The position numbers and the translations under genes are program-made. The notes under the pieces are model-generated. The model saw only the letters and a program-made list of their open reading frames with translations, did no database searches and was not told the origin of the DNA. A DNA stretch of 61,447 bases, filler included, from an uncultured virus (IMG/VR IMGVR_UViG_3300005239_002421) (Duplodnaviria > Heunggongvirae > Uroviricota > Caudoviricetes). It is 6 parts of one record of this genome, joined end to end, with 100 filler letters (N's around TTAATTAATTAA, not from the genome) between each part and the next. Parts side by side here need not be neighbours in the genome. Positions count along the whole stretch, not along the records: positions 2,238 to 15,308 come from IMGVR_UViG_3300005239_002421; positions 15,409 to 20,211 come from IMGVR_UViG_3300005239_002421; positions 20,312 to 32,107 come from IMGVR_UViG_3300005239_002421; positions 32,208 to 57,276 come from IMGVR_UViG_3300005239_002421; 2 more parts are not named here. One strand, written 5' to 3'. The stretch's first letter is position 1; every line of letters starts with the position of its first letter. Shown in pieces: positions 13,209 to 56,741 of this stretch.

Positions 13209-13364
13209 TTATTTTTTTGTTTTTTTGTTTTTTTGGGCTTCTGCTACTTTGGATTTTATTGCTCCCGACAATCCTGTGTTTCCTTGAAATCCTTGATTTC
13301 CTATATTGCCTGAATTACCTGACCTTAAACCTAATCCTTTATTTGCTTTACCCGATAATCCCAT
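13209..13364 (-). CDS. Small Gly/Lys-rich protein (51 aa)
   Basis: Read manually: MGLSGKANKGLGLRSGNSGNIGNQGFQG... Confidence 0.45.
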   Translation of the reverse strand: MGLSGKANKGLGLRSGNSGNIGNQGFQGNTGLSGAIKSKVAEAQKNKKTKK

Positions 13365-15308
13365 TATTTTCTTCCTAAAAAGATTCCTAACAGAATACCT
13401 GCTAGTCCTCCTATTAACATTGAATTATCACCTTTTTTCTTTACTTCGCCACCTTTTGCATAACTTATTCTATCTAATCTTTTTCCTAATTCTTCTTCAT
13501 CATTTTTCCACAAATAAAACATTTCTTTGGCTAAATCTTCTACATCTTCATCTTCTGCCAACTCATCTCTATTCCAACTTACAACCTCTACTCCATCTCT
13601 ATATATAAAAAAATCTCCTAATTCTCCATCTGCTCCATCTCCATAGGGGTTTCCCTCTATTGTAATCTTACCACCTTTAGCAAAACTCCCAACATACTTA
13701 TCATCTAAATATCTAAATTTTCTTGTAATTCTATATCCGTTTTCTTTTAAGTATTTGATTTCTTTTTTGCATCTTCTAAAGAATCGAATCCTTCGTTATA
13801 TTCATCCCCCTCACTATCTACATATTCAATGTCATACGAATATCGACTATCTAAATCTCCACCTTTAGCAAATCTTCCGATTTTCAATTCTCTTCCTTCT
13901 TTATAGTTATCCCCATCAAACCATTTAGATATTTTATCAATACCTTTTTGTAGTTTTTCTTTTAAATCTTCTATACTATCAAAAGTGAATTTGTCTTGTG
14001 TGTAATCTTCCATATTTCCTGTTCTGTGATAAGGTGCTTCCATATTTACATTACCGGTAAGAACTATAGTATGCTTACCATCAATACCTCTGCTATTATC
14101 AGGATTATAGTAAAATGCTTCTACTTCAAACATAATACTATCATCATCACTTCTTGAAAACATATCTAAATCTTCTGCCTCATCCATATATCCTGCATCC
14201 TGTAAAGAAGAGTAATCAACATTTTCAATACCTCCTAATTCTTTTACTATGTCAGGATATTCTTCTTCAAATCTTTCTTTACCATATTCATAATTTAGAT
14301 TTTCTACTCTTTCTAATTCAGCATCTAAAGTATTTGTAGGTAAAGATTTTCCTGAACCTGTCAAATAGTTCCCGTATGTGAAAAAACGGTATTCATAACC
14401 TCCATCAGTAAAAGGAATAAAGCCATCTCTGCTCTCGTATTCTACTTCTTCTCCTTCTATGTCTTGACCTTCATATTCTTGATTAGCATCTTCTAATACA
14501 TCTTCTAACTCATCTTTTAATACCTCTACTATATCTTCTCTGCTTATAGCTTCTCCACCCTCTGAAAAACCTTGAGGGAATTTAGAACTATATATTTCAT
14601 CGTTATATCGAGATGCATTATCAACAACTCTTACCCAAGTATTAGAATCTTCTATTTCTCTTGCTTTTGAAATTGCTCTTTTTTTATTTGGTGCCTCATC
14701 ATCTAAATGCACTACATCGTAGTTTTCATCGAAATCATAATCATTTTCGTTGTTGTAAACTCTAATAATATATTCTTTGTTTTCATCTAAATCCCCACCT
14801 TTTTCAAAACTTCTAATCACGAAAATATCTCCATCATTAGACTTGTATTTCATTTTAGGGAAATACTTTTGTTTAGCTTCTTCAAAATTATCTCTATTCT
14901 GTCTTTCTGAATCTACAAAAATCACTTTATAATTATCTCCTGCTAATACTTTTATTTCTTCTACATCATAATCATAATCTCCTCCGGACTGCCAATCATC
15001 TCCGAACTTTTGCTTTGCTAAATCAATTAAACCGTTTTCACTAACAAAATCATCTGTTGATGTATAATTTCCACTTAAATCGTTTCCTAAACTGCCACCT
15101 TTTGCATATTTAGATAAATCGTATTCTTTTACTGTTCCTCCCTTTTTATAGTTTTGAAAATAATGTCCATCATATTCGTTGTAATTGTTTATTGATAAAT
15201 CTCTTCCCAAAGCCTCATAGTCAAAATAAAATTCAGGATTTGAAACACCTTCAATACCACCTACATTATCAACATAATTTTCTCCTAATTCGTAATCTCC
15301 ATCATATT
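13364..15308 (-). CDS. xxGG-repeat polyprotein A: ArdA-like segment, acidic modules, C-terminal TM (5' truncated; -1 shift near 13765)
   Basis: Frame open to the gap with YFDYEALGRDL; 7 [YF]xxGG motifs; -1 frame continues to LIGGLAGILLGIFLGRK. Confidence 0.75.
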
Positions 15309-15408
15309 NNNNNNNNNNNNNNNNNNNNNNNNNNNNNNNNNNNNNNNNNNNNTTAATTAATTAANNNNNNNNNNNNNNNNNNNNNNNNNNNNNNNNNNNN
15401 NNNNNNNN

Positions 15409-15515
15409 CTTTTATAATCTCTTAATCTTTCATTAGCACTAAAAAGTTGCCAAATAAGAATAAATAGAATTATAATACATATAGTTAGTGCATTATTTTT
15501 AAGTTTAGAAAACAT
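15409..15515 (-). CDS. Membrane protein, N-terminal fragment (spanin-like position)
   Basis: MFSKLKNNALTICIIILFILIWQLF.. directly after the holin-like gene; runs into gap. Confidence 0.4.
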
Positions 15516-15523
15516 AATCCATT

Positions 15524-15718
15524 TTATTTCTTGTTTCCTATATTTGACAAGTGTTCTCCGGCATTACCTACTGCATAAATACCAAATATCCACATTACAA
15601 ACTCAGACCAATTAGCAAAGTCTGCCTGTCCAATAAACAAGAAAACTGTTGCACATATAAACAATAAAATCGCAAAAAACATTTTACGACCACCTAAAAA
15701 ACTAAATACTTTTTCCAT
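15524..15718 (-). CDS. Holin-like two-TM protein
   Basis: GGRKMFFAILL..W..FVMWIFGIYAVGNAGEH. Confidence 0.6.
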   Translation of the reverse strand: MEKVFSFLGGRKMFFAILLFICATVFLFIGQADFANWSEFVMWIFGIYAVGNAGEHLSNIGNKK

Positions 15719-15730
15719 TTTTTCTTTTTT

Positions 15731-16402
15731 TTAATTCATAATTCTAACATCATATATATTCTGATTGGCGGCTATTATTCTTCTATTAACCTCATCCCAA
15801 TTTATAATTTTAAATATATTTTTGATGTATTTCGTTCTGTCTGCATCGTATTTCAAATAATATGCGTGTTCCCACACATCTATTCCTAATAAAGGATATG
15901 ATTGATACTCAGGCATATATGGGTTGTCTTGATAAGGGGTAGCTAGTATATTTGTACTACCATCTCTATTCATTACCCACCATACCCATCCTGAGCCGAA
16001 TCTTTTCTGCGATGCTTCAATAATAAATTCTTTAAATTGTCCGTAAGTACCAAAGTCTTGAATAATTTTAGCCAATGAAACACCGTGTGGTGGATTTGAC
16101 TTTTTTGATGGATTAGGTTTAAGCATTTTCCAAAACATAGAATGATTTACATAACCTCCTCCATTATCTCTAATTTCAATTGGGTATCTATCTATGTTCT
16201 GCATTACTCTAATAACCGGGTCAGTAATATCATATTTGTCTACTGCTGCGTTAAACTTTTTTAAATACCCTAAATAATGTTTATTGTAGTGTATTTGCAT
16301 AGTTTCCTCATCAATATATGGCTCTAAACCGTTATATTTATAAGGAAGCCTTACAGGAGAAAAATGTATTAAATCATAGTCATCATATTTATTCATTTTC
16401 AA
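15731..16402 (-). CDS. sodA: Fe/Mn superoxide dismutase (Mn-type signature)
   Basis: LEPYID..HYNKH..GGYVNHSMFW..FGSGW..QDNP..DVWEHAYY. Confidence 0.95.
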   Translation of the reverse strand: MKMNKYDDYDLIHFSPVRLPYKYNGLEPYIDEETMQIHYNKHYLGYLKKFNAAVDKYDITDPVIRVMQNIDRYPIEIRDNGGGYVNHSMFWKMLKPNPSKKSNPPHGVSLAKIIQDFGTYGQFKEFIIEASQKRFGSGWVWWVMNRDGSTNILATPYQDNPYMPEYQSYPLLGIDVWEHAYYLKYDADRTKYIKNIFKIINWDEVNRRIIAANQNIYDVRIMN

Positions 16403-16825
16403 ACTTTTTATTGCGTGTTAAGTTGCGTGTGGTAACATACGAACCTCTGAACAAAGCAAAAGAACCAATTACACACACGACTAACAAAGCACTTAGAACA
16501 ACTTTATTATTCACTTATTACTTACACTTATAGATTAAGTAACCTAACATTCCAATGATAATTACATTGTGAACATTGTTACCACCTAAAAAATCTGCAC
16601 TTTTAATATCAAACATTTTTTTTAAATTTTTGGGTTAATACTCGTTTTATTTACTCTCCTGCAAGTTATATTTTTTAATGAGATTTTTAGCGATAGTTTG
16701 TAACTTCTTTTTATCGGCTCTTGCAGGTGGGAGATTGTCGTTAGTAATATTAAGTTTAGACTCTTGCATACTTGCAATTGTATATTTTAAATTCTTAACG
16801 ATTTCTCTTGCCCTATTTACACTCA

Positions 16826-17332
16826 CTACTTCTTCAATAATAAATAGGCACCTACACCTATTGCTATATATAAAATTAAATCATTATTATCTTTTTTACC
16901 TTCAACCGGCTGCGGATTTACTACAACTACAGGAGTAGGTGTTACAGGAACTTCTGTAATAGGCTCAGTAACTACATTTTCTACAATAGGTTTAGTAGGA
17001 GGCGAGTAATTGATTCCTAACTCATCTACTGCTATAATAGGGTCATCTATATGATGTCCCTGAATAGGGTCAACAAACACAGGTGGACCTTTTACAATTG
17101 GTGTATTGCAAGGGTCTTTATCTAATGTCCATCCTTGAGGGCAAACTGTTCCGGGGAACATATTAGAAACCCCAAATCCTTTATCACACTTATTACATAT
17201 TACAGTCTGAGTAACAGGGTCTACAGGTCTAGTTGGTACACTTGGCACCGAAACAGGTGGTCGATAAGTTGGTACTACAACCCTACTTCGACCTTGAGTA
17301 GCTGCTGCTTCAAACCATAATTCATTTGACAT
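16826..17332 (-). CDS. Pro/Cys-rich protein with C-terminal TM (virion membrane candidate)
   Basis: Starts MSNELWFEAAA; ends LILYIAIGVGAYLLLKK. Confidence 0.65.
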   Translation of the reverse strand: MSNELWFEAAATQGRSRVVVPTYRPPVSVPSVPTRPVDPVTQTVICNKCDKGFGVSNMFPGTVCPQGWTLDKDPCNTPIVKGPPVFVDPIQGHHIDDPIIAVDELGINYSPPTKPIVENVVTEPITEVPVTPTPVVVVNPQPVEGKKDNNDLILYIAIGVGAYLLLKK

Positions 17333-17525
17333 ATCTTTTTATTTTTTATTATTTAATCTAATCCTACTAATTCATCAATAGTTTTGCCATCGAAATATTT
17401 ATCTTTTAAGAAATTATCATAAAAACCAACCAAGGCTACAATAGCTAATAAGTTAAAAGCTACTTGATATTCAAAAGGGGCTAAACCACCTTTTTTTAAT
17501 TTATTGTATGACCTTTTATTCATTT

Positions 17526-17741
17526 TTAATCTTCATTTATATTCCAATCTTGCTGAGGCTTTACGGCAATTATTTTAGATGAATTTTCTTCTTTTAATTC
17601 TTTTTTTACTAATTTTATTCTTAAAACATCTAAATATGTTTTTACAATATAAGAAACTCCTATAGCAATTGCAATAGAACCTCCTACTGTTAGTATTTTT
17701 TGAAGATGACCTTCTTCTAAATAATCTTCCCACTTAGCCAT
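17526..17741 (-). CDS. Small membrane protein
   Basis: Single TM segment. Confidence 0.6.
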   Translation of the reverse strand: MAKWEDYLEEGHLQKILTVGGSIAIAIGVSYIVKTYLDVLRIKLVKKELKEENSSKIIAVKPQQDWNINED

Positions 17742-17862
17742 TTACAATGTGTTTTTAGTTATTGTAATATTTTTTGCTATATATTCTTGGTAAATCATAT
17801 AAGCACCGTACCCTGCAAGAGCATATTTTATTATTGAAAACATAGTATATTATTTTTATTTG

Positions 17863-18369
17863 TTATGCTCCACAAGAACCACAAGCATTACTCATATTTG
17901 AAGTTTGCCAATCAGTACCTTGTAGGTTTCCTGATGCATTACTCATATTAGAAGTTTGCCAATCAGTTCCTTGTAAATTTGCTCTTCTTGCTCCGTTTGC
18001 ATTTGAATAACCACTTCTTCCCGGCATAGCCGCTAACCAAGTAGCTTCCCAACCTGCACTTGGTTTTCTTCCCGGAATAGCTGCTAACCAATTGTTATCT
18101 CTACTAGGTATTGCTTTAACATTAGGTGGACCATAAGGAATCATATATCCTCTTCTTGCTCCTGATGCGTTTTGGAATACTCCACCATCTTGCCACATAG
18201 TTTCTCTGTTTCTACCACTTTGTTGCCAATTAGTTCCTGTGAAACTTGAAGTTGGTTCAGCACCTTCAATTGGTGGAACTGTACTTGTTTTTGGTTTAGA
18301 GAAATGCTCGTAAGCTGCATATGCTCCAAATCCTGCTAGTCCGTAAAGACCGATTTTCATTAAATCCAT
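17863..18369 (-). CDS. N-terminal TM protein with repeated NAxG motifs
   Basis: FQNASG, YSNANG, MSNASG, MSNACG; tandem NLQGTDWQTSNMSNA x2 and WLAAxPGR x2. Confidence 0.75.
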   Translation of the reverse strand: MDLMKIGLYGLAGFGAYAAYEHFSKPKTSTVPPIEGAEPTSSFTGTNWQQSGRNRETMWQDGGVFQNASGARRGYMIPYGPPNVKAIPSRDNNWLAAIPGRKPSAGWEATWLAAMPGRSGYSNANGARRANLQGTDWQTSNMSNASGNLQGTDWQTSNMSNACGSCGA

Positions 18370-18388
18370 TTTTCTTTTTTTTTATTGA

Positions 18389-18802
18389 TTAATAATTATT
18401 TAATTTTTGTTTAATAGGTATTTCTAAAACTTCGCTACCTTGAAATTTATATTCATTTTCAGGGTACATCATTTGCGAGTTACCTAAGTTGTCTATTCCC
18501 CAAACAGGAAAATCCACATCTTTCATTGTGATTCTTCCATTTGGAATGAGATTATAAGGTTTGTTTATGTCCTTACTATCTCTTTTATAACCTGTAACAG
18601 AATATATGTCACCATTAAATCCTAATGATGCGGTTCCTCCTATTGGCAAACCTCCAATTACTCCACTATCAGGTACAGTCACAACATAAGGTTGTGATTG
18701 TCTATTAGAATCAAAAAAGTTGTCACCTTCGTTAAACCAAGAATCTCTTGTGTCTAACAAATTAGATACATCAGCATAGCCATCTTTAATAATACTATCC
18801 AT
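18389..18802 (-). CDS. Hypothetical protein with conserved-looking C-terminal beta domain
   Basis: GYKRDS..NLIP..ITMKDVDFPVWGIDNLGN..MYP..Y.F.G..V.EIP. Confidence 0.65.
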   Translation of the reverse strand: MDSIIKDGYADVSNLLDTRDSWFNEGDNFFDSNRQSQPYVVTVPDSGVIGGLPIGGTASLGFNGDIYSVTGYKRDSKDINKPYNLIPNGRITMKDVDFPVWGIDNLGNSQMMYPENEYKFQGSEVLEIPIKQKLNNY

Positions 18803-18968
18803 TTAATCCTCTTTTGTCTAATTCTTCTTTTACTATTTTCTTTACACCCGGTCTAAAAACATATATTTCTGCCCACATTTCAAGAGCAACAAAGGCACCT
18901 ACTGCTACTGCTACTGTACCCCAATTTATTTTATCACCGAATAACTTCATATTACCTTTTATATATTA

Positions 18969-19337
18969 TTAAAACAAAAATCTTGAGCCATTAGGAATAT
19001 CATATATAAAATCTTCACCTTCACAATAAAATGCTCCTTTTTTACCATTTTTATCTAACCAAAATTTTGATACAGTACAAGGTGTTTTACCATTAATAAG
19101 TCCTTTTGTTCCAATATGTAACCTTTCAGTTGCTTCATATTTATCATCACGAATTAAATCAATTGCATTATTATTTTTTGCATCACTAATGTTGATTGAA
19201 TTATTAAATGTTGAAGCTAGATTATCCTGCCCTAAAGTTGTTTCAGTTAATTCATTTTTATCTTTTTTAATAAATAAAAAGTAAGCTGCTACTGCCGCTA
19301 CTGATACACCTATAATAATTTTTGTTTTCTTATCCAT
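18969..19337 (-). CDS. N-terminal TM protein, paralogue of 32900-33253
   Basis: Shared ATE.L..GT..PCTVSKFW.DKNG..GA..C. Confidence 0.75.
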   Translation of the reverse strand: MDKKTKIIIGVSVAAVAAYFLFIKKDKNELTETTLGQDNLASTFNNSINISDAKNNNAIDLIRDDKYEATERLHIGTKGLINGKTPCTVSKFWLDKNGKKGAFYCEGEDFIYDIPNGSRFLF

Positions 19338-19350
19338 TTTATTGTTTTTC

Positions 19351-19494
19351 TTACTTCTTTTTATATATCATCATACCTGTCTTTGTTTTTGATGCAACAT
19401 AGGTACTTCCGTTATAACTAAAAGATTTTTTTCCGGCTTTTCTTGCCTTTTCTTTTGCTTTCATATAAGCATTCATTGCTCTTTTCTTTGCCAT
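19351..19494 (-). CDS. Small basic putative DNA-binding protein (47 aa)
   Basis: Read manually: MAKKRAMNAYMKAKEKARKAGKKSFSYNGSTYVASKTKTGMMIYKKK*. Confidence 0.7.
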   Translation of the reverse strand: MAKKRAMNAYMKAKEKARKAGKKSFSYNGSTYVASKTKTGMMIYKKK

Positions 19495-19664
19495 AATTAT
19501 TTATTTTTAAATTTATTTTTATATATGTAAAATGCTAAACCTGCCACAAGAATTGCACCTCCTATATACATTAGATTCTTATTTCTTTTTTCAGTTTTTA
19601 CTTCTTGAGTACGAGCATCAATAACTGCCTGTTCTTCTATAGTATGTTGTTTAGCCGCCATAAT

Positions 19665-19931
19665 TTATTTTTTAAACATTCCCTTACTGTAGGCATAATA
19701 TACACCTACTCCAACAATTGCTATCCAAGCTAAGTTTGGTAAGCCCATAAATCCTGCTTTTTTTGGCTTAACATCTGCCGGAGTAGTTCCCACATTATCT
19801 CCGGGTCCTATTACTTCTGCTTCAGCTAATAATTCTTCTTTTACTTCGGCATCATCTTTTCCTGCTCCGTATAAAGCATCATTTACTTTTTTTATATATT
19901 CAGGGTCTGTCCCTTGTGCGAATCTTGACAT
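19665..19931 (-). CDS. C-terminal TM protein
   Basis: KKAGFMGLPNLAWIAIVGVGVYYAYSKGMFKK; paralogous fragment at about 20058-20211. Confidence 0.7.
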   Translation of the reverse strand: MSRFAQGTDPEYIKKVNDALYGAGKDDAEVKEELLAEAEVIGPGDNVGTTPADVKPKKAGFMGLPNLAWIAIVGVGVYYAYSKGMFKK

Positions 19932-19937
19932 AATTTT

Positions 19938-20045
19938 TTATTTTTTTCGGGTATGACTTTTTACTGTCTTACCTTTTCGTTTATAACTCTTTATTATTGT
20001 GCAAGATTTACTTCCACTTTTTTTTGCTGCTTTTTTCTTTGCCAT
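19938..20045 (-). CDS. Small basic protein (35 aa)
   Basis: Read manually: MAKKKAAKKSGSKSCTIIKSYKRKGKTVKSHTRKK*. Confidence 0.6.
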   Translation of the reverse strand: MAKKKAAKKSGSKSCTIIKSYKRKGKTVKSHTRKK

Positions 20046-20311
20046 TTTATTTATTTTTTATTTTTTAAAAACTCCTTTTGTGTAGGCATAATATACACCT
20101 GCACCAATAATTGCAACCCAAACTAAAGTCGGTAATCCCATAAATCCTGCTTTTTTTGTTTTACCATCTGCAACTTCTGTGGTAGTAGATTCTGCTGCTA
20201 CTATTTCAGTTNNNNNNNNNNNNNNNNNNNNNNNNNNNNNNNNNNNNNNNNNNNNTTAATTAATTAANNNNNNNNNNNNNNNNNNNNNNNNNNNNNNNNN
20301 NNNNNNNNNNN

Positions 20312-22054
20312 ACCACCTTTAGCGAAATCATCATCTTGCTCTCTATCTTCTTGAGCATCATAATAATCTAAAGTTTCATTATTTAAAGTATCAATCAGAA
20401 TAACATCCATTTTATATAAATATTTACTTCTTTCATTTATAAACTCATCGTATGCTTCATCATAATCATTTCCTCTCCATAAATCATTTCTGCCATCAAG
20501 AGAAACAAGATATCTTCCATCTACCATCCCACCTTTAGCATATTTATTTTTCCATTTATTATTGGCGGTTTTTATATAATCTTCCTTGATGGCTATTTCT
20601 TCAAAATTATCATCATCAACATTATATCCGTGTCGTTCAAATTTTTCTTTCAAATCTTTATCAGTATATCTAACTCTTTTATCATAAGTATATTTAGGGT
20701 CTTTTATTCTGCCGCCTTTTGCATAATCTTCTATAATTACATCATCATAACCTTTTTCTTTCCACTCTTTTGCCAATCTCTCGGCTTCTTCTTCGGTTAA
20801 TTCTTCTCTACCATCTATATCTAAAGGCATATCTCCTACCCACACAATCTTACCACCTTTTGCATAAGATTTTTCATTTACTCTTTTAAGTAAATAAGTC
20901 TGCCAATCTTTCTCATCTTTCGTAAGCATATCTCTTCTACTCTCCCTATTCCAATCCTCTCTAATCTTTCTTCTTTCATCTAAATCAATTCTATCTAAAA
21001 CATAATGAGTGAACCTTTCATAATCTCTATCAAAATCATCATAAGTTTTCATAATCTTACCACCTTTAGCGAACTCTAATTTCTCTTTTTTATAGACTTC
21101 ATATGGAAATACAAATTGAGCAGAATACAACTTCATTTCACCTTTCTTCCAAAGTTCTTTTTCTTTTTCATTAGGTGCAGAAAACTCATCCCAATCACTA
21201 CCTTTTTCGTGCTTTACAAGAGCACTTGTTTGAATAGTATCTTCATCAACATAAAAATCCTCTTCTTTCATATCTGCGTATGAAACAAAATCATTTAAAG
21301 TTTCAAATAAATCTTTTTTATTAGTAAACTTAGTTTTATATGGAAAATCATTTTCACCTAAGTAATATGAATGAAATTGGTCTTGCTCTCCCTCTTCATA
21401 AGAATCTTCATAGAAAGTAACATCAGCACCCTTTATTTGGTATGTTTTTCCTACTTCTCCACCTTCTTCAAGTAAATCCGGATTAACATATTCTTTAGCC
21501 ACCATCATCTTTACGGGTATTTGTCTTTCGACTAAACTATCAACGGCTCCTTGTTCATTATATTCATTACTCATTATATAGCCATCCATACTGCTCCAAA
21601 CTAATCCTTGATTTTCTGCCTCATCCATAAACTCATCATCGCTTAATTCATCAGCATATCTTTTAAATTGATTGTAAGTGAAGAAACCTTCATCTGCATA
21701 CATATCTGCTCTCATATCAATAGCATAAACCCTTTCCTCAATCGTACCGCCTTTAGCAAATTTTGCTTTTTGTTTCTTAGCATCTTGAACGGTTTTGTAT
21801 ATGCCTCCTAAATCTTTCTTGATGTCTTTAATAACATTCTCATTATCCTTAATAGATTTTTTTTCTCTATCAATGCCACTCTCTAAATTGTTAATTTGAT
21901 TTTCAGAACCTGTAATGTCTTTACGAATGCTTTTTATCTCTTCCCTTCCTTCATTGATTTCTTTATCGCCTTTTTTAGCAACATTACCCATAGCTTTAGC
22001 AAGTTCAATTTGACCTCCTCTTTCGTAACTATTATTTCTATTTCCTCTTTTCAT
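20312..22054 (-). CDS. xxGG-repeat polyprotein B (3' end in gap)
   Basis: 8 motifs (YERGG, FAKGG x3, LEEGG, YAKGG x3) separating acidic modules. Confidence 0.8.
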
Positions 22055-22056
22055 AA

Positions 22057-23148
22057 TTATCTTCCTATAAAAAATGCACCAAGTAAAATACCTGCTATCC
22101 CTCCTACAAGTAAAGTTTGATTATTATTATCTTCAGTATTATCAACTTTTTTTGCTTCTACTTTTTCAATTTTATCATCACATTTATCTTTAGTGATAGT
22201 TTCTTTTCTTAAAGCACCTTTTTCCTTCTTTAGTTTAGCAATTTCTTTGTCTTTTTCTCTTCTTAGCTTAACATATCTATCTCTGTCAATTTTACCTTTA
22301 ACAGAACCTCCTCTTGCATATTGTTTTTCTGTATAAAATTCTTTTATGTTATCCTTTAACCCATACTGCTCTTTAAGTTGCTCTTGACTATTTTTACCAT
22401 CATATATTATGTCGCTATTTAACATATAATTTAAATTTTCTACTTCTTTTTCTGCCTCTGCTTTAGATTTATAAAGCATATCCTTATTTGTTGCAAAGAA
22501 ATTTTTATTTTTTGTTCTTCCCTTTATCACATAACCACCTTTTACAGAGCCACCACGAGCCATTTTTCTTTTGCCTTTATCCATTGTAGATACATCTGCA
22601 TACTTTCTTCTGCCCATAGATTTTTCAGTTCCTGCACTTTCTCTCATTCTACTATCTAAAGATTGAGATTTTTTTCCTCTGTTTCTTTCTCCTATGCTTT
22701 CTCTATCTCTGTCATCATAACCTTGAGTTTTACCACCTTCCATAAACATTCTATCTCCATTATCCATAGTTTCTACACTTGAATATGCTCTACGACCTAG
22801 ATTTTTATTAGCTGCTTTGCTTTCATCTCTTCGGTCTTTTAATGTTTGTTTATAATTGCTTTCTCTTCCAAGTCTAGTTCCTAAATCTTCATTTAACTTG
22901 TCGTTATACCCTTGTGGTTTAGCGGTTTCTCCTCCTTTAGCCATCTTTTTCTTATTTGCTATTTGTTGCATATTTAAAGCAAATTGTGCTCTTTCACGAG
23001 TTCTTTCTGAAAAGTCAGTTGGATTATCTTTTACTTTTTTAGCAAAATCTTGAACGGACATACCTGCATCAGTAGCTTGTTTAGTAAACGCACCAACAGT
23101 TCCTTTTTTTTCCATTTCTTTATCTACATTTTGAATCCAATCTGCCAT
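22057..23148 (-). CDS. xxGG-repeat polyprotein C with basic modules and C-terminal TM
   Basis: MAKGG, FMEGG, MARGG, YARGG; duplicated QGY.D..RR.Y..V.TMD module; ends LLVGGIAGILLGAFFIGR. Confidence 0.8.
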   Translation of the reverse strand: MADWIQNVDKEMEKKGTVGAFTKQATDAGMSVQDFAKKVKDNPTDFSERTRERAQFALNMQQIANKKKMAKGGETAKPQGYNDKLNEDLGTRLGRESNYKQTLKDRRDESKAANKNLGRRAYSSVETMDNGDRMFMEGGKTQGYDDRDRESIGERNRGKKSQSLDSRMRESAGTEKSMGRRKYADVSTMDKGKRKMARGGSVKGGYVIKGRTKNKNFFATNKDMLYKSKAEAEKEVENLNYMLNSDIIYDGKNSQEQLKEQYGLKDNIKEFYTEKQYARGGSVKGKIDRDRYVKLRREKDKEIAKLKKEKGALRKETITKDKCDDKIEKVEAKKVDNTEDNNNQTLLVGGIAGILLGAFFIGR

Positions 23149-23152
23149 ATTA

Positions 23153-23653
23153 TTAATTTTTTTTCATTATTAAATAACCTAAAACTAAAACAACTGCTCC
23201 AATACCTAAATACATTGCCATATTGCTATCATCTGAGCCTGATGAAACACCTGCTGCTACACTATCATCGTTTACATCATAAGAGGTCAAGTCATCTGAA
23301 TCAACTCCTAAATCTTCATCTATAACTTCATCAATCTCTTCTTGATTACTTGGTTGTTCCGAAATAGTCATTTCTGATAATTCATCATTAAAATCACTAA
23401 GATTCATAGATGTACCACCTTTTACTGTAACTTCTTTTCCGGGGTATCGTGAGTCTGATGGTCCGTGTTCTCTTAATGTTGCACTATATCCATCTCTTAC
23501 TGAAATATGTGATGCATCATCATTTGGAAAATCAGTATCTCCTAAAAAAGTACCTTCTCCAAAATTTTCTTGCCATCCCGGAAATCTACTATCACCATCT
23601 CCGTGTTGAGATAATGTTACTGCTCCTGTTTGTCCAAACCAAATATCACTCAT
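23153..23653 (-). CDS. Beta/gamma-crystallin domain protein with C-terminal TM
   Basis: Two Greek-key-like repeats: VTLSQH..FPG..NDDASHISV..GY.ATLREH..YPG..NDELS. Confidence 0.7.
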   Translation of the reverse strand: MSDIWFGQTGAVTLSQHGDGDSRFPGWQENFGEGTFLGDTDFPNDDASHISVRDGYSATLREHGPSDSRYPGKEVTVKGGTSMNLSDFNDELSEMTISEQPSNQEEIDEVIDEDLGVDSDDLTSYDVNDDSVAAGVSSGSDDSNMAMYLGIGAVVLVLGYLIMKKN

Positions 23654-23754
23654 ATCTATTTATTTATTAAAAACATTTTTGTTCATATACCATAATCCTA
23701 CGGCTATAATTGACCAAAATACTATTCTAGGTTTTCTTTTCTTTTCTTTTGCCA

Positions 23755-24237
23755 TTATCCTTCAGGGTTAAATGTTGCTTCCGGCAACTCCGGTCTTGGA
23801 GGTGCAGGAGCCATTGGAGCCTCTGCTACAGGTGAAGGCACAGTTTGTTGGGTAGGAGTATAGTCTACTTCTCCACCGTGGTCAAACTCTGCTCCATCTT
23901 CTTTCTCAAAGAATAATTTATATCCTACATAAACAATTCCTAAAAGTACCAATGCATCAAAAATCTCTCTCTTGTTTCTTTGAAAGAAATTTTGTTTCCT
24001 AGACAATTCTTTTTTCTTGTATTGTTTTATGCTACTTTTTTGCATATCCTCAACCCAATCTGAATTTCCATCATCGCTGACTTCCATTTTTCCATCAACG
24101 ACATAAGTTTCTTCAGAATTTTTTTGAGTTTCAGAGCCTTTAGGTTCAGATAGTTTCTTGTCTATAAGACCCCATCTTTCCTGTTCTTCTCTGTCATCTA
24201 CAAAGCCATTACTTTTAAAACCTGCATCTATACTCAT
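23755..24237 (-). CDS. Membrane protein with one FDHGG motif
   Basis: Central TM segment, Pro-rich tail. Confidence 0.65.
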   Translation of the reverse strand: MSIDAGFKSNGFVDDREEQERWGLIDKKLSEPKGSETQKNSEETYVVDGKMEVSDDGNSDWVEDMQKSSIKQYKKKELSRKQNFFQRNKREIFDALVLLGIVYVGYKLFFEKEDGAEFDHGGEVDYTPTQQTVPSPVAEAPMAPAPPRPELPEATFNPEG

Positions 24238-24605
24238 AACTTAATTATTTTTGTTCTCTTGCTACATTTCTACCTTTTTGCCACCCATATCCAAGTGCAA
24301 AAAACATTGCTCCTGTTAACACAAGAGAAACTGCGAAAGTGCCANNNNNNNNNNNNNNNNNNNNNNNNNNNNNNNNNNNNNNNNNNNNNNNNNNNNNNNN
24401 NNNNNNNNNNNNNNNNNNNNNNNNNNNNNNNNNNNNNNNNNNNNNNNNNNNNNNNNNNNNNNNNNNNNNNNNNNNNNNNNNNNNNNNNNNNNNNNNNNNN
24501 NNNNNNNNNNNNNNNNNNNNNNNNNNNNNNNNNNNNNNNNNNNNNNNNNNNNNNNNNNNNNNNNNNNNNNNNNNNNNNNNNNNNNNNNNNNNNNNNNNNN
24601 NNNNN

Positions 24606-24872
24606 ACCAAATTTTCCATCAACTTTTAAACCATAACTTCCTGCATCATTTAAAAATCTTTGTAAATTTTCTACTTTTACTCCTCCGCTACCTTTTTTTA
24701 ATGGAAAGCCTCTTCCTGAAAATTTATCTACTGTTTTAATATTAGGGCTATTATTTGTTCCATTATTACTTGGTGTAATTCTAACTCTACTAGGTCTTAA
24801 TAGATAATATAGACCTACTCCTGTTCCGAGTACACCTACAACTATTAAAGTTATTTTTAAGTTTTTATTCAT
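24606..24872 (-). CDS. TM-anchored peptidoglycan-binding protein (3' in gap)
   Basis: FPLKKGSGGVKVENLQRFLN..LKVDGKFG fits PG_binding_1. Confidence 0.8.
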
Positions 24873-24877
24873 AATTA

Positions 24878-25327
24878 TTAATCGTTAAACCACATTTGGT
24901 CATTATATCCTCCAAAACCTTGTTGATTAAAATTAGAGTATGATTCTCCATCAAATCCTATACTAGTTCTTCCTCTAACGGAGCCACAACTTGCAGGGCT
25001 ATTACTATAATTACCCAAAGAACCACAGTTACCTTGAGATGTTAGTGTTGTAAAGTTTGAACCCGGCATTGGTATTCCCACACCTTGACATCCTTGTGGA
25101 TAGCAAAATCCTGTGTAGGTACAACTTCCATCATCATTATTTGCTCCCGGACTATAATTGTTTGCACTAGAATCAGTACAACCGCTAATAGTATATTCAC
25201 ACGGACAATCAACAGTTGGTGGTGGTGGTGGTGGTGGTACATTTATATTTGCTGCTGCATTAAAGAATTCATCTCTTGAAATGTAAGAGTTAAATCCATC
25301 TTGGTCGTTATTTATTAAAAAAGCCAT
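24878..25327 (-). CDS. Cys-rich GCTD-repeat protein, paralogue of 31602-32060
   Basis: GCTDSSANNYSPGANNDDGSC; ends SNFNQQGFGGYNDQMWFND. Confidence 0.75.
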   Translation of the reverse strand: MAFLINNDQDGFNSYISRDEFFNAAANINVPPPPPPPTVDCPCEYTISGCTDSSANNYSPGANNDDGSCTYTGFCYPQGCQGVGIPMPGSNFTTLTSQGNCGSLGNYSNSPASCGSVRGRTSIGFDGESYSNFNQQGFGGYNDQMWFND

Positions 25328-25345
25328 TTTTTTTTATTTTTTATA

Positions 25346-26119: not shown

Positions 26120-26125
26120 TTTTCT

Positions 26126-26365
26126 CTATTTTGTTAGTTCTTTCTTTAGTTTTTCAGCATCATTTTCATTAAAACCATCAAGAATTGTTTGCGATGTTCC
26201 GGAAACAGGTGTGGTAGGATTTGTCACATTTGCTACACTACCGTTTGAAATGGCAGTATTTTTAGTAGCAGTTGTGCTTTCTCCTTGTTTACGAGAAAAT
26301 ATCCTGTGAAGGATAAATGTTGCAGCAATGGCTCCGATGATATATGTTAATGGTACTTTTTTCAT
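26126..26365 (-). CDS. Small N-terminal TM protein
   Basis: Single TM segment. Confidence 0.6.
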   Translation of the reverse strand: MKKVPLTYIIGAIAATFILHRIFSRKQGESTTATKNTAISNGSVANVTNPTTPVSGTSQTILDGFNENDAEKLKKELTK

Positions 26366-26820: not shown

Positions 26821-26822
26821 AA

Positions 26823-27101: not shown

Positions 27102-27102
27102 A

Positions 27103-27543: not shown

Positions 27544-27595
27544 CTTCTAGTTTTTATTTTCAAAAATAATAAAATTATTCAATTTATCCATTTTT

Positions 27596-51349: not shown

Positions 51350-52965
51350 CTACTTTAATGTTGTTAACTTCTTTAAGTTTTTATCAATCAATTTTTGTAT
51401 TGACTCTACCCTGAATGAATTAATTCGTTTTTCATCTGATGTTACACTAGCATCTAAATTTTCTAAACTTACTTTTAATTGATTATAAAGATAGTCCAAA
51501 CTAAAATTAACTTTTAGTGATTCATCTGACTTTAATTTTTTGACTTTTCCTCCTTTTTTCATACGAGATTTTGCTCTAACTCTATCTGCTTTGCCCGATG
51601 AAATAGCACCAAAGTATCTTTTCTGTTTATCAGTTAATTGCTTTCCATTTGCAATACCATCATCTAGTATTTGTTTAGCTTTTGTAGGTGTAAGCCCTCC
51701 TTTTTTAAACTTTCCTTCGTTGTCAATATAATATAAATCTCCTTCATATTCAAAACCTATAGCTTCTTGACCCCATTTTCTAGCCCATTCTTTTACTTTA
51801 GAAACTACTTTTGCTTCATTCTTACTCCAATCCTTTTCATTAGCAAATACTGATACTTTAACTATATCCTCTTCTATTATTTCTCCTGACTGAGATTTGT
51901 AACCTCCATCTGTTTCGGTTTCAGTATATCCTCCAAATTCATTTGCTACATAGTTCTCTACTTCTTTAACTCTACCTTCTAATTCTTCTTCAGATATTTT
52001 ATCTCCTACATTAGATGTAGATGGGACATAAATAACAAAATTCTTATCAAATTTAAATTCTTTTGACAAGGCACCACCTTTCTCATAAGGACTTGATACC
52101 CAAAGTTCTCCTCCTTTTTCCATCTTCAATTCCTTTTCATCTACTTTGGCTGCCTTACCTCCCATTACCGCACTATACACCCTAGCTTGAGCCCATTGCT
52201 CTTTTGATTTAACATTAGGTCTAACACTCGATGGATTAGTTTTATAGGCTCCTATGCCTTTATTGTATATTTTTTGAATTCCTTTTTTTGAAACACCGGT
52301 ATCTTCTGCTATATCCGATAATGAATTTGATGCATCTAAATCATTTCCATACTTTTTATTATATTTTTCTTTCCAAGTCTTTGCCTCTTTGGTCTTACCA
52401 CCTTTTTTAAATTCAGTTGGCTTATTNNNNNNNNNNNNNNNNNNNNNNNNNNNNNNNNNNNNNNNNNNNNNNNNNNNNNNNNNNNNNNNNNNNNNNNNNN
52501 NNNNNNNNNNNNNNNNNNNNNNNNNNNNNNNNNNNNNNNNNNNNNNNNNNNNNNNNNNNNNNNNNNNNNNNNNNNNNNNNNNNNNNNNNNNNNNNNNNNN
52601 NNNNNNNNNNNNNNNNNNNNNNNNNNNNNNNNNNNNNNNNNNNNNNNNNNNNNNNNNNNNNNNNNNNNNNNNNNNNNNNNNNNNNNNNNNNNNNNNNNNN
52701 NNNNNNNNNNNNNNNNNNNNNNNNNNNNNNNNNNNNNNNNNNNNNNNNNNNNNNNNNNNNNNNNNNNNNNNNNNNNNNNNNNNNNNNNNNNNNNNNNNNN
52801 NNNNNNNNNNNNNNNNNNNNNNNNNNNNNNNNNNNNNNNNNNNNNNNNNNNNNNNNNNNNNNNNNNNNNNNNNNNNNNNNNNNNNNNNNNATAAGAATTA
52901 TAATTACCTTTTTCTCTTTCACTATTTCTTATAGCTAATAGTTTTTTCTTTTTTTCTCTATCCAT
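51350..52965 (-). CDS. xxGG-repeat polyprotein D (DUF5824-like and SAM-lyase/DUF3574-like modules); spans gap
   Basis: Frame open from the gap edge at 52426 to 51350; FKKGG x2, MEKGG, YEKGG, MKKGG; probable ATG at 52965. Confidence 0.7.
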
Positions 52966-52968
52966 AAC

Positions 52969-55900
52969 CTATAATACTTTTTTCATTTTTTCAATTTCTT
53001 CCATCAATTCTTTACGCAATCCCTCATCTTTTTCTTCTTTTATCATTGATTCAAGAATATCTATTTGTTCTGCAATTTCTTTGTCAAACTTTTTTAAATC
53101 TACTTTACCACCTTTTTCCATAACTAAATCTCCATCTTCATCAAGGTAATAATCTGCATCTTCATCAGTTTTAACTCTGTTTTTTAATTCCCATTCTATA
53201 GCTTCTTCAGGTGTAACAGAGCCATATTCTCTGTCTAATTCCTCATCATAAAAACCATTGTCATAATCCATAACTACTAAAAACTCAGCAACTCTTTGTC
53301 TTTTATCAGACACTTCTCCACCTTTTGCAAATTGTTTATTATACTCTTCGGCTCTTTTTTCAATTTTATTTTTTATTACAATTGGAGCCTTTTCATAAGT
53401 AATTGTTTTACCCCAATGGCTTATGTCAGCAGGAAATTCTGCTCTGTTTCCTGCATACATATCAATACTCATATTTGGCATAGTATGATGGTTCATTTCA
53501 TACACATCTCCGTGCATTACTATAGTATAATCTCCATCCAAGCCTTGATATATGTCTATTTCATTCATATCTAGCTTTCCTCCATCTTCAAGTAATCTTG
53601 CTCCACTATTGTCAGATTTAACAAAAGAACTACCAACACTTTTTCCTGAAGTAGATTTTATTTGATTTATAAACTCCTGTAATTCTGCCTCACTTAACTC
53701 AAAAGTATTTACATTCCTATTCATCATATCTGAGGATAAGTGCCAACTTGTATTTCCTGATTTGCTTAAAATACCTTTTCCGGTAGGCAGGTGTATCTCT
53801 CCGAATTTCTTACCACTTTGAATTCTTATTTTATCAGTTTTCTCAGTAATTGGATATACTATAAAATCTTGTGGCTTTCTCATACCTTTAACCTTTAAGT
53901 CAAAAGATGTAGTTCCCATTATATTTTTCTTATAGTTTGTTATTGGGGAATCAGTTTCTCCACCTTTTGCATTTATAGGAGTTCCATCATATTTTCTGTT
54001 TTCGCCTTTGGAGTTTTTTAATACCTCAAACCCATATTTATCACTTAACTCATAATCTTCTGTCCACTCATCCTTTCTTTTGTCTTTCATTAAGTCCTCT
54101 AAACTCTTATAGGTTTTATATGTTCCTCCATCGGTTGCCTCCCACTCTTTAGTAATTTCATTATAATCTAATATATAGTTTCCTACTTCTAATTGCTTTT
54201 CTTCAATTAACTCTTCATACTCATCTTTGTCTATACCCCAATAATTTCCTTCAATAAATCCACCTTTTTCAAATGGCTTCATTACTACTCTTTCTCCCAA
54301 AGGATAAGTATCGTTTACTCTATAAACAGTATCAATTAGCAAGTCTTTAGGATTTTCTCCTTTTGGTCGTACTCTATCAATTTCAACTAATCCTACCCCA
54401 TCTTCTTTGAATTTATTCTTTCCCCATTCAATAGCTTCTTTTTCACTAGCAAATCTTTTAGAATCTCCATATTTTAAATTATGTCTGTGCTCTAAAGCTA
54501 CTGCATTGTAGTGAGGTGTAACTCCACCTTCTGCATATTTATTATCTTTTCTTCTGTAAAAATAATCATCTGTATCTTTTATTCCATAAGTATCAACATC
54601 ATCAAAAGCACCTTTCTTTTCAAGTCTTTTTTCTATCATACTTGCACCTCTAAATGTATCAGAACTACCTAAGACCTCTCCATCATAACCATCACCTTTG
54701 TGAACAATATATCTTTTGACTTTGCCTCCTTTTGCATAAGAAGGAGTATATAAATCATATCTATCTGACATTTCATATTCTGATAAATTAATTAATCTTT
54801 GAGTTCGGTCAAGCACATCATCATATAATTCTACTACATCATTATCTGAATACTTATCTTTCTCAACTGATATAACCTCTAATGCTATGTTGCTACCTTT
54901 TTTCTGAACAAAATCTCCTTTTTTAAGGTCTGCTATATTAATCTCTCCACCTTTTGCATAAGAAGTTACCATTGGATATTCTCCTTTGTATGAGTCATCA
55001 GCTATTTCATATAGATATTCTCCATCTTTAGATACTTCAACATACCAAGTTCTTTTAAATTTACTTTTTGCTAATTCTATAATAGATTTTGGTGTGCTAT
55101 TTTTAGGAATATCAATATCTCCCAATAAAAATGCTCTACCTGTATCATCATCTTTAAATCCAACAACTTCTCCTTTGTAAGTCAAATTTTTGTCTATGGT
55201 ACCACCTTTTGCATAGTTTTTAGAAATATTTCCTTTAGTTTTTATCTTAGAATAGGTTTTTCCTAATTCAATTAATTCATCATACTTTTTATTTGCCTCT
55301 TCTAATGTTGCATATTGCCAAACCTCTTGATTTTTACCCGGTCCTTGTCTGCTTATGCCATACTTATAATTTCCTTTATACTTTAATCCATCTTGATTTC
55401 TAAAAGGGTTTAGTTTTACTAAATTAAATATCCATCCATCTTCAAAGTTGGTATATCTTAACNNNNNNNNNNNNNNNNNNNNACTTATATTGGTTCTTCT
55501 TACAGAGCCACCTTTTTCATAGTAATTTTTAACATCATCTTCAGTTATTGTTATATCTTGTCCTTCTCCTTTAATTACCGCCCACATTTCATCAGTTGAA
55601 GAACGATAATTTCTTTGATTTCGCATTTGTTTTTTAGCATATTCTATCGCATCTACCAAAGTTCTTAAATATATATTTCTTCAGATGAGTCCTTAAATTG
55701 ATACGAACCTTCATAAAAACGAACTAAATAACCTTTTTCAGTTTCTCCACCTTTTGCATAATCTTTTATAGCTTTGTCTAGTGAAAGAAAAACAACATTG
55801 GCACTTGCTCTATTAAACTTTGGATTTTTGTCATCATAATCGCTATTTAAATCATTATCCTCAGACATAAAATAAACTCTGCCGTTTTTAATATTTATTT

Positions 55901-56741
55901 TTACTAATGGCATTTCACCCGTAACCATATTATCGGTTTGGACTCTTGCTAACATTTCTCCATCCTTTAGAGGAATATGTGAGTAAAATTTTTCATCATA
56001 ATCATCTAGTTTATACAAATAATAATCTCCAATATATTTTTTATCTATCTTGTGAGCAAAGGCTCCAAAAGATTTTTGACCATTAGATGATTTTTTGCTT
56101 TCCCAAATTTTTCTTGAAGAAGTATTATCTTTTAAGTCTGTAAATATTACCTCTCCTCCTTTTGCCATTTTCTCAATATCTCCAATTAAATAACTTCCTT
56201 TTTCTCCTGAAAATTCTACTTGGTCTTTTTTGTTTTTTGATATGTCAGTAACTTTCATTGTAGTTCCACTATCTTTTATTTTTACTTTATCACCTTCATA
56301 TATAGCACCACCTTTAGCAAAGAACAAGCTATTATCTACCTTGATGTCAGAGAATTTTATATTATCTAAATTTTCTTGTGAAACCTGTTTTATTTCTATT
56401 GGTTTCGTTTCGATTTCTTCTACAGTTTCTACAAACTCTTCATCCGGAGAAGAATCTGTTTCTTGTGCAAATTTTCTTTCATCATCTTCAATTTCATCTA
56501 AAGTGTTTTGGTCTAAATCTTGTTCTACAGGAGCATCAGTATTGAGTTCAACTTCTACAGGAGCATCAGTATTGAGTTCACTTAAAGCCGCATTAATTTT
56601 AATTATTTCTTGAGCATTTTTATCATACATCATTTTATAATCACGGTCATCAAGGTCCTCTGCAAACATTTCTTGTTGCTCGTTTAAATCCTCTAAGATT
56701 TCTAATAAATCTTCTTCTGTTTTATTGGTGTAATCTTCCAT
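52969..56741 (-). CDS. xxGG-repeat polyprotein E (about 1250 aa; tracked ORFs 55665-56741 and 52969-55659 probably one gene)
   Basis: 13 motifs; one extra A near 55677 gives SEENIYLRTLVDAIEYAK and joins the two frames. Confidence 0.75.

Follow-up and report, generated by a model that had tools for sequence, protein, structure and literature searches.

The T4 head protease gp21 cuts virion cargo or internal proteins at L/I-x-E, and the proteases of phiKZ and SPN3US cut such proteins at S/A/G-x-E. The consensus of adenain is (M/I/L)-x-G-G|x, where the bar marks the cut. Polyvalent proteins are regarded as the earliest weapons that a phage or plasmid brings into a cell. According to the main text of Iyer et al. 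(2017, J Bacteriol; PMC5512222), the domain found most often in polyvalent proteins is the zincin peptidase, a peptidase lies within the chain in about 36% of them, and both processing by zincins and delivery with the invading DNA have been proposed. Here, we analyzed a stretch of 61,447 nucleotides (nt) from the uncultured marine bacterial virus IMGVR_UViG_3300005239_002421, referred to below as the window, in which several long proteins are chains of unrelated modules punctuated by a short Gly-Gly joint. The observation proved real once gene coordinates had been corrected, and its reading as a set of modular cassettes is well supported. Overall, we favor, with a probability of about 0.5, the reading that these are cassette chains of the polyvalent class whose modules are released at the joint by a viral protease.

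The strict form of the joint, [YFM][AEK]KGG, occurred 28 times in seven minus-strand open reading frames (ORFs) with a total of 3,218 amino acids (aa), whereas no copy was present in the remaining 77 gene products (14,789 aa) or in any plus-strand frame. When the residues of the seven ORFs were shuffled 2,000 times, the mean count was 0.09 and the maximum was 2. The confinement of the motif to a few long ORFs, as the original prediction had it, was thus borne out. That prediction had also put the number of copies at about 38; a broader pattern gave 37 sites in the array ORFs, and the counts per gene (8, 4, 5, 13, and about 7) agreed. Enrichment was also obtained across the window and 10 relatives, where the general motif was found 8 to 49 times per genome, against shuffle means of 0.9 to 3.5 and shuffle maxima of 4 to 8.

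To describe the joint, a profile was built from 682 unique sites in 114 non-redundant arrays. These came from the window itself, 61 homologues in databases, 31 loci in metagenomes, and 10 records of IMG/VR. The joint comprised seven residues, [Y/F/M]-A-[K/D/N/E]-G-G-x-[V/I/T/L]. At P5, Y (52%), F (36%), and M (12%) were used; P4 was A in 77% of sites, P3 was mostly K (72%) or D (13%), and P2 and P1 were both G. Only a weak preference for E, K, and S was seen at P1'. P2' carried V (36%), I (25%), T (16%), L (10%), or M (7%) and reached 1.83 bits, and this position lay outside the pattern with which joints were searched. Information was limited to P5-P1 and P2'; elsewhere between P13 and P8', no position rose above background (at most 0.19 bits). 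In the window, 31 sites were obtained when R was allowed at P3, and P2' could be scored in 30, every one of which was V (11), I (10), L (5), or T (4).

The codons behind these residues were much freer than the residues themselves. Across the joints of the window, Ala was encoded by GCA (11) or GCT (9), and the second Gly by GGT (12), GGA (10), GGC (6), or GGG (3). In addition, relatives replaced K at P3 with D or N, giving FADGG, YADGG, MADGG, and YANGG. Given this synonymous variation and residue replacement, the sequences show that selection on the joint acts on the peptide rather than on the DNA. The same data bear on a translational role, in which the K-G-G codons AAAGG[T/A]GG would act as a Shine-Dalgarno (SD) sequence for pausing or internal initiation at module borders. 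Although AAAGGAGG or AAAGGTGG is present at most joints, SD-like sequences were found upstream of only 1 of 74 genes, the leaders being A-rich, so the virus and its host evidently do without SD, which argues against AAAGGTGG as a translational signal. Moreover, the codon four bases downstream is GTA, ATT, TTA, or ACC and mostly not a start codon, and GAT or AAT at P3 in the relatives with FADGG and YANGG breaks the SD-like word and leaves the peptide motif intact. We therefore regard a translational signal as very unlikely.

Where the joints lie along the chains was also informative. The median spacing between joints was 79 aa, and 36 of 605 spacings were 12 aa or shorter, giving tandem joints. 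A short N-terminal leader that ended in a joint, with no domain before it, was present in 29 of 103 chains, compared with a rate of 14% in random windows, and in many chains the leader was 5 to 18 residues long. Short tails after the terminal joint were seen as well (YAKGGSIK and YAKGGKTRKKRKK), and 58 of 114 chains had a tail anchor 11 to 16 residues past the last joint. The leaders and tandem joints hint at a joint that is recognized rather than a passive linker. Recognition need not mean cutting: as the original prediction had itself allowed, the joint could be a docking or packaging tag that is bound by a component of the particle, such as a membrane or coat protein, with loading that scales with the number of joints. 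The compactness of this linear motif, its location in disordered segments, and its placement at N-terminal leaders and near the anchor would suit a tag. However, no particle component emerged as a candidate receptor, tagging every cassette would be redundant in a chain that is already anchored, and the present data look alike for binding and cutting; we consider a tag improbable. A sorting signal of the NCBIfam GlyGly-CTERM/rhombosortase type was not matched by the full-length homologue P0001 or by the other anchored arrays, and none of the ORFs in the 31 metagenome loci had the three or more transmembrane (TM) helices of a partner intramembrane protease.

The joints marked the borders of modules. 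No joint fell inside a domain in any of the 26 Pfam or PHROG matches in the arrays or in the 21 matches in the large arrays of relatives (0/47). Many matches were tightly bracketed: ArdA, at residues 21-187, was flanked by one joint that ends at 12 and another that starts at 191, and LPD11 (654-721) lay between joints at 649 and 725. In array gene A3, DUF5824 (residues 8-95) was bracketed by joints at 10 and 102, and a phrog_3543-like module (125-238) by joints at 118 and 240. An AlphaFold2 model of P0001 had a mean predicted local distance difference test (pLDDT) score of 51.7, and its confident parts, a helix at 12-100 and a domain at 201-323, fell exactly between joints 10-14/99-103 and 195-199/328-332, with all eight joints in coil with pLDDT below 55. 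Thus, the view that the motif marks borders between unrelated modules held up, and a check for motifs inside folded domains found none. Some modules had also been described as free-standing phage proteins. This was confirmed for ArdA (Pfam positions 1-153 of 155), DUF5824, phrog_3543 (3-112 of 125), and phrog_1987 (1-123 of 128), and a further module called SAM-lyase-like found no Pfam or PHROG support.

The modules were exchanged extensively among homologues. When 20312-22054 was used as the query, 61 proteins were obtained, mostly with high identity over only part of it; all 61 contained joints (1 to 12 each), and 59 had at least three. Cutting 67 proteins at their joints yielded 546 modules in 221 families, the order of which varied around a recurring frame of a 14-aa leader, a helical head of about 85 aa, variable cargo, and the anchor. 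The window array proteins had 3 to 13 modules each. Even in near-identical relatives, distal modules were replaced (P0001 versus P0003 and P0004). Among 459 internal ends of similarity blocks, 53% lay within 5 aa of a joint, versus 13% of random positions, and families F49 and F50 of the unanchored arrays recurred in anchored proteins. At the level of sequence, these data show that cassettes are swapped in frame at joints, both between relatives and between the three loci. Arrays were present in all 31 related metagenome loci, 30 of which had one to four genes with at least two joints, and 40 of the 48 non-redundant arrays from these loci were anchored. The conserved C-terminal tail anchor that had been predicted is present, with the form (M/L)L(I/V)GG(I/L)AGILLG(I/A)F... 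in three array genes of the window; only two had been counted before, the third being the gene for P0001, whose anchor is cut off in the window.

Exchange at joints also favors the main rival to proteolytic release, in which the chain stays uncut like beads on a string. The joint would then be a flexible hinge and an in-frame recombination joint, and the intact chain would work while tethered to the membrane. In agreement with this, the swapping of cassettes coincides exactly with the joints, a GG pair is a classic hinge, the ORFs searched yielded no GG-specific protease, and the first Gly codon is homogenized within each genome. The virus also encodes RecT and a PD-(D/E)XK nuclease, a pair that could power the swapping, as could illegitimate recombination. 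Some polyvalent proteins, as described in the main text of PMC5512222, are packaged unprocessed. On the other hand, only about 11 of the 15 bases of a joint are fixed, with the Ala and second Gly codons varying freely, which makes for poor recombination homology. The aromatic-type P5 residues (Y, F, and M, with differing codons) and the aliphatic P2' residues (V, I, T, and L, with many codons) are kept as residues. Leaders of 5 to 18 aa that end in a joint have nothing to hinge, and tandem joints 5 to 7 aa apart add no module. We consider an uncut chain a real possibility, if a minority one.

The identifiable cargo was, by domain content, shown to be anti-defense in nature. In the arrays of the window and their homologues, it comprised ArdA (8 arrays), ART-PolyVal, DUF4240, DUF7447, and DUF5824. 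The jointed giants of relatives contained ART-PolyVal, LPD11 (E 3.6e-31), DarA_C, Zeta toxin, RelA/SpoT, N6 DNA methylase, GNAT, DUF2958, and DUF5661, and ART-PolyVal was found in P0029, G001, G013, G005, and G002. Several unrelated domains per chain, hallmark domains, and a mosaic domain order, all of which characterize polyvalent proteins, were observed. A peptidase in cis, which is common in that class though not obligatory, was absent from all 20 large arrays of relatives, from a set of 65 arrays, and from the window arrays. We are highly confident that the arrays are polyvalent-class proteins in jointed cassette form.

For the fate of these chains, we propose proteolytic release, which we favor because the compact motif, the leaders, the tandem joints, and a conserved zincin acting in trans all fit it. 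The joint would serve as a short linear site that a protease encoded by the virus recognizes and cuts, splitting the chain into separate proteins. This protease would be a stand-alone, universally conserved HExxH zincin, and the tail anchor would keep the precursor on a membrane that becomes part of the particle, so that the cargo would already be loaded and would accompany the DNA into the next host. The anchored arrays lie within the membrane-protein block, a gene position that bears on such delivery. Zincins mostly prefer a hydrophobic residue at P1'. Together with the invariant aliphatic residue at P2' of the GG joint, this preference would place the cut at G-G-x|[VITL]. We judge that the odds of the joint being cut are about even, and that the cargo is packaged is somewhat less probable. 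The complete strategy, with cassettes between cut sites, a membrane tether, a trans-acting zincin cutting at G-G-x|[VITL], and pieces delivered with the DNA, is offered tentatively.

The original prediction had pointed to a protease of the Ulp1/adenain type. A clan-CE cysteine protease (adenain, Ulp1, or African swine fever virus [ASFV] type) that cuts GG|x would suit a Gly-Gly that follows a hydrophobic residue, which resembles the adenain consensus, and the short tails after the terminal joint recall the trimming of ubiquitin-like precursors. However, Pfam found neither a Ulp1/adenain protease nor any other cysteine protease among the 84 window ORFs, Peptidase_C48 (PF02902) and Peptidase_C5 (PF00770) were each found in 0 of 5 near-complete relatives, and a regular expression for the clan-CE triad gave only implausible matches (RecT, HNH, methyltransferase, and similar). 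The arrays are almost free of Cys, and the site itself differs from the adenain type, with the hydrophobic residue at P5 and Ala, not a hydrophobic residue, at P4 in 77% of sites. A clan-CE enzyme thus seems quite improbable, even more so than a docking tag, and a divergent or host-encoded protease is still conceivable; the genome behind the window is itself incomplete.

The zincin candidate was found by a motif scan, which identified HEFSH in the 276-aa ORF 37812-38639. It had 1,661 homologues at E ≤ 1e-3. In 32 diverse homologues (49-85% identity to the query), H193, E194, H197, N201, E207, E209, A210, D211, and the strand T161-I165 (TPARI) were invariant, and H193, E194, and H197 were also kept in the candidates of 10 aligned genomes. 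An AlphaFold2 model (pLDDT 89.6; predicted TM-score [pTM] 0.88) showed a beta-sandwich at residues 1-93 followed by an alpha/beta domain, in which HExxH is predicted to lie on a helix (184-200) and E207, E209, and D211 on the next helix (207-220). When residues 124-261 were compared with VIA-align 2, the M48 protease BepA (6sar_A) gave Z 8.5 with a root mean square deviation of 4.7 over 120 aligned residues, followed by a putative Zn peptidase (3c37_B, Z 6.8), Ste24 (4il3_B, Z 6.1), and 5zum_B (Z 5.9). BFVD matches to the model were weak and included enhancin and an M48 protein of Sylvanvirus (E 4.9e-3). Thus, the model supports a zincin fold with moderate confidence, the Z values being moderate. 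The zincin candidate, a P-loop ATPase, and the core protein 40423-41169 were the three gene families found in 11 of the 11 genomes compared, all of which were joint-enriched. Fused (longer) forms of the candidate were looked for and none was found, which is weak evidence. A complex prediction for the candidate with Zn and a 35-residue joint peptide (P0001 382-416) scored 0.00 when run without controls and speaks neither for nor against binding. That this zincin does the cutting is a link that we infer, and we regard it as possible but doubtful.

Other routes to the enzyme were tried and given up. Covariation between the charge at P3 and zincin residues was dropped, as K, D, and N occur side by side at P3 in every genome and leave nothing to covary. 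A phyletic comparison of genomes with and without the motif collapsed when the generalized motif was found in all 11 genomes. An M23 peptidase (G001 only) and the CHAP/DUF2272 protein 11998-12672 were considered as GG-cutting enzymes, and neither was conserved across the 11 genomes.

Several points weigh against proteolytic release by the zincin. Cutting itself is something that we infer, and some polyvalent proteins are packaged uncut, such as the N4 virion RNA polymerase (main text of PMC5512222). The codon of the first Gly is biased per genome, with GGT at 20 of 31 sites here (33% background) and GGC in G003, as if homogenized, which would be consistent with a contribution from the DNA level or from recombination. 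Some relatives have sparse joints, at 3 to 5 per 1,000 to 1,900 aa, with two domains between neighboring joints. Owing to the poor overall quality of the P0001 model, the border test is informative for three modules only. Of the six window arrays, three lack an anchor and are located outside the block of membrane proteins. As for the zincin, its co-occurrence with joints was scored in genomes that had been selected through the zincin itself, its best Z of 8.5 is in the "middling" range of the tool, Foldseek against the PDB matched only the beta-sandwich part, and neither a Pfam match at E ≤ 10 nor a PDB sequence match from its profile was obtained.

The long ORFs of the window are all on the minus strand, and its GC content is about 30%. 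It contains 1,774 N, including five blocks (2138-2237, 15309-15408, 20212-20311, 32108-32207, and 57277-57376) that each consist of 44 N, TTAATTAATTAA, and 44 N and are six-frame-stop spacers that join contigs. In the relative L001, a metagenome contig with 99.9% identity, 987 nt stand where the window has the 100-nt spacer of 15309, and 2,070 nt where it has that of 20212. Given these blocks and the additional real sequence in L001, the window consists of at least six contig pieces strung together in approximately syntenic order. Two of the spacers sit immediately next to array genes, and another is found about 500 nt upstream of array A1, a pattern that suggests that assemblies break at these hypervariable genes.

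Of the five long motif proteins proposed originally, the arrays themselves stood and the gene models had to be changed for contig cuts, merged genes, an indel, and an N run. The protein at 13364-15308 is not intact, its 5' part being cut off at the spacer at 15309; it is complete in L001. That at 20312-22054 lacks its last 30 aa, the membrane anchor, at the spacer 20212-20311. What was taken as one protein at 52969-56741 is two genes, 55668-56741 and 52972-55659, separated by a stop codon and a new frame without a slippery site. The reading frame at 51350-52965 is not continuous, as a 464-N run crosses it and its two ends are in different frames. Within gene C, 13367-13795 and 13750-15306 are in different frames, and the cause is one extra A in an A-run near 13770, where L001 is in frame. 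The extra A, in the run GCAAAAAAGAAA (about 13765-13775, minus strand), happens to form a classic A_AAA_AAG slippery heptamer. A programmed -1 frameshift at this heptamer was considered and dropped: L001, with one A fewer, reads through as an uninterrupted ORF of 785 aa, which makes a homopolymer error or variant the likelier explanation of the sequence. The corrected features are listed in Table 1.

Table 1. Corrected array genes and other features of the window (positions count along the whole stretch)
Feature	Position	Strand	Description
Cassette-array gene A1	55668..56741	-	358 aa, without anchor; FAKGG at residue 141, MAKGG at 192, YAKGG at 328
Cassette-array gene A2	52972..55659	-	Up to 896 aa, without anchor; about 10 joints; gene separate from A1
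Cassette-array gene(s) A3	51353..52965	-	Five joints visible; 5' part hidden by 464 N (52427-52890)
Cassette-array gene B1	22060..23148	-	363 aa; joints MAKGG, FMEGG, MARGG, YARGG; C-terminal tail anchor LLVGGIAGILLGAFFIGR
Cassette-array gene B2	20312..22054	-	581 aa visible; full protein P0001, 611 aa, 8 joints, anchor MLIGGIAGILLGIFLGRK
Cassette-array gene C	13367..15308	-	5' cut by spacer at 15309; split by extra A near 13770
160-aa membrane protein	23758..24237	-	Single joint-like FDHGG-EV after TM helix; adjoins arrays in relatives too
Zincin-like metallopeptidase candidate, stand-alone	37812..38639	-	276 aa; N-terminal beta-sandwich, then HExxH domain
P-loop ATPase	43455..44270	-	272 aa; weak HerA/FtsK-type matches; present in 11/11 genomes
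Core protein, coat candidate	40423..41169	-	249 aa, near ATPase gene; 11/11 genomes, 20 members
Tail-anchored membrane-protein block	12672..40294	-	At least 20 ORFs with C-terminal TM helix, then K/R; from hydropathy scan and synteny in relatives
DarB-like helicase	57587..58960	-	Helicase_C; phrog_10089 "DarB-like antirestriction," E 7.2e-11; phrog_1685
Large 5'-open ORF	59065..61446	-	Directly upstream of arrays A1-A3, with DarB-like helicase (region 57587..61446)
RecT annealing protein	2189-2977		Pfam; Red-like recombination pair with the exonuclease below
PD-(D/E)XK exonuclease	6109-6936		Red-like recombination pair with RecT
Fe/Mn superoxide dismutase	15734-16402		E 8.8e-33
PAP2 lipid phosphatase	49151-50116

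Among the three unanchored array genes, the A1 module family F49 recurs in the anchored protein P0045. The joints of A2 are YEKGG, YAKGG (three times), YAEGG, FEKGG, LEDGG, FAKGG, and MEKGG, plus NAKGG; its module family F50 is common to P0046, and a 20-N run lies inside the gene at 55463-55482. The region upstream of arrays A1-A3, 57587..61446, is reminiscent of a classic large protein of the polyvalent or anti-restriction kind. Within the tail-anchored membrane-protein block sit the anchored arrays B1, B2, and C, and the head of B1 matches phrog_20603. In L001, gene C encodes a 12-aa leader ending in YNKGG, a complete ArdA domain (Pfam E 3.7e-23; phrog_2059 anti-restriction E 1.8e-24), more modules, and the anchor; in the window, its first 137 residues (the leader and most of ArdA) are lost at the spacer, leaving an ArdA tail with E 6.7e-4. 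The single joint-like site in the 160-aa protein at 23758..24237 makes its membership in the joint system doubtful.

The other conserved genes give some indication of the particle. The P-loop ATPase, whose match to DUF87 (E 9.4e-4) misses the Pfam cut-off, is by its sequence a probable packaging motor. The core protein near it may be regarded from conservation as a candidate coat protein, for which Pfam, a PDB sequence search, and the ESM Atlas (no model, scores below 0.8) gave no lead. The PAP2 gene was kept in 9 of the 11 genomes, as would suit a virus that handles membrane lipid. Families for capsid, portal, terminase, and tail proteins were found neither in the window nor in the 56 ORFs of the complete 79-kb relative G001, and HK97 capsid and TerL families were each found in 0 of 5 near-complete relatives. 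The lysis genes target peptidoglycan. Among contigs from metagenome-assembled genomes (MAGs) that carry the zincin, 7 of 14 had Bacteroidota labels, and 1 more was labeled Ignavibacteria, which we take to be related to Bacteroidota. Given the membrane-protein genes, the missing tailed-phage families, the Bacteroidota labels, and the lack of SD sequences, the host is probably a member of Bacteroidota and the particle is, as far as gene content tells, probably tailless and membrane-containing.

The clade is abundant in marine and freshwater environments, with genomes of about 60 to 170 kb and no detectable tailed-phage genes. Clade contigs (L138-L151) were also found in MAGs labeled Chlamydiae, Alphaproteobacteria, Gammaproteobacteria, Planktophila, and Saccharibacteria in addition to Bacteroidota, three of them 101 to 132 kb long; the variety of labels probably reflects mis-binning of viral contigs. 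IMG/VR lists inverted terminal repeats for the complete relative G010 (84,420 bp), which would suggest a linear genome and possibly protein-primed replication. Downstream of the membrane-protein block, G001 (40053-51368) and G010 (51961-67974) encode giant ORFs of 3,772 and 5,338 aa that have no joints; Pfam gave no match for that of G001. An IMG/VR search with the zincin alignment recovered 63 loci, and searches of that database with the ATPase, the array alignment, and a back-translated anchor pattern recovered none. In the phage GenBank collection, 40000-52400 had no match at the DNA level, and the ATPase and two arrays had none at the protein level. PDB sequence searches with the ATPase, 40423-41169, and 37812-38639 returned nothing useful, and the P0001 model, when used for a fold search, drew only generic matches to long helices.

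Further motifs were observed outside the arrays. Several Cys-rich proteins without TM helices (24881-25327, 25349-26119, 31605-32060, 36129-36449, and 4801-5172, with L002:1421-2716 and L010 in relatives) share a C-terminal motif, ...GFGGYND(Q/K)MWFND or ...F(D/G)G.FM(F/M/I)GDY, and an HNH protein ends in FFMGDYQVK; this may be a second sorting or assembly tag. Another motif, of the type [FY]-x-N-A-x-G (EFMSANG, FQNASG, YSNANG, and FYNAGG), was seen in 40423-41169 (residue 19), 17866-18369 (residues 65 and 121), and 31605-32060 (residue 124), and has an A-x-G core in common with the array joint. The 453-aa protein 10637-11995 has a domain in common with a second, shorter paralogue of the 40423-41169 family (32% identity over 136 aa to G001 54559-55098) and may be a vertex or spike protein.

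These arrays offer a natural catalogue of at least 221 module families, most of which have no known function. Judging from their position in the chains, modules beside ArdA, ART, Zeta, and DarA are candidate anti-defense proteins. A fixed, short joint is easily mutated, so processing is directly testable, and a candidate protease and site are provided as a pair. If the particles are membrane-lined and tailless as supposed, the arrays would represent a new way of carrying cargo in such viruses. One could go on to imagine plug-and-play, preloaded anti-defense cargo as the practice of a large clade of tailless, membrane-containing phages that has yet to be described, an outcome that we hold to be possible though not the likelier one. 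Literature searches for the joint motif, DUF5824, and the system or clade found no relevant description.

Compared with the head proteases of T4, phiKZ, and SPN3US, the arrays are similar in that many short consensus sites would be cut by one virus protease, and the short N-terminal targeting leaders of T4 that end at a cleavage site resemble the 5- to 18-aa leaders found here. However, those viruses are tailed phages with HK97-type capsids and U9/S80-type proteases, and HK97 capsid and TerL families were missing from the 5 near-complete relatives as described above. The arrays also differ from these systems in their motif, their modular, shuffled cargo, and their membrane anchor. Adenovirus and ASFV share with the arrays a Gly-Gly core after a hydrophobic residue and a virus with a possible internal membrane. 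They differ in that no clan-CE protease was found here by the Pfam and triad searches, the hydrophobic residue is at P5 rather than P4, and the substrates are effector arrays rather than core polyproteins. As in M48-type zincins (BepA/YfgC 6sar, Ste24 4il3, and 3c37), the modeled HExxH helix of the candidate is followed by a helix with invariant acidic residues, whereas the candidate has no sequence-level membership in that family, carries an N-terminal beta-sandwich, has no membrane spans, and is encoded by a virus.

The closest likeness is to polyvalent proteins as described in the main text of PMC5512222, which are also long phage proteins with many unrelated conflict or anti-defense domains and extensive mosaicism, and which have the hallmark domains ART-PolyVal, LPD11, DarA_C, ArdA, Zeta, RelA/SpoT, and DNA methylase in common with the arrays. 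Unlike them, the arrays mostly carry whole small proteins as cassettes, with one seven-residue joint after each; about half are tail-anchored, and instead of a peptidase in cis (0/20), a stand-alone zincin is a core gene. The main text of that paper, as distinct from its supplements, does not contain the words "linker," "glycine," "Gly-Gly," "transmembrane," or "marine." Thus, measured against that text, the arrays appear to be a standardized, often tail-anchored form of polyvalent proteins, in which the standard joint and the tail anchor are apparently new.

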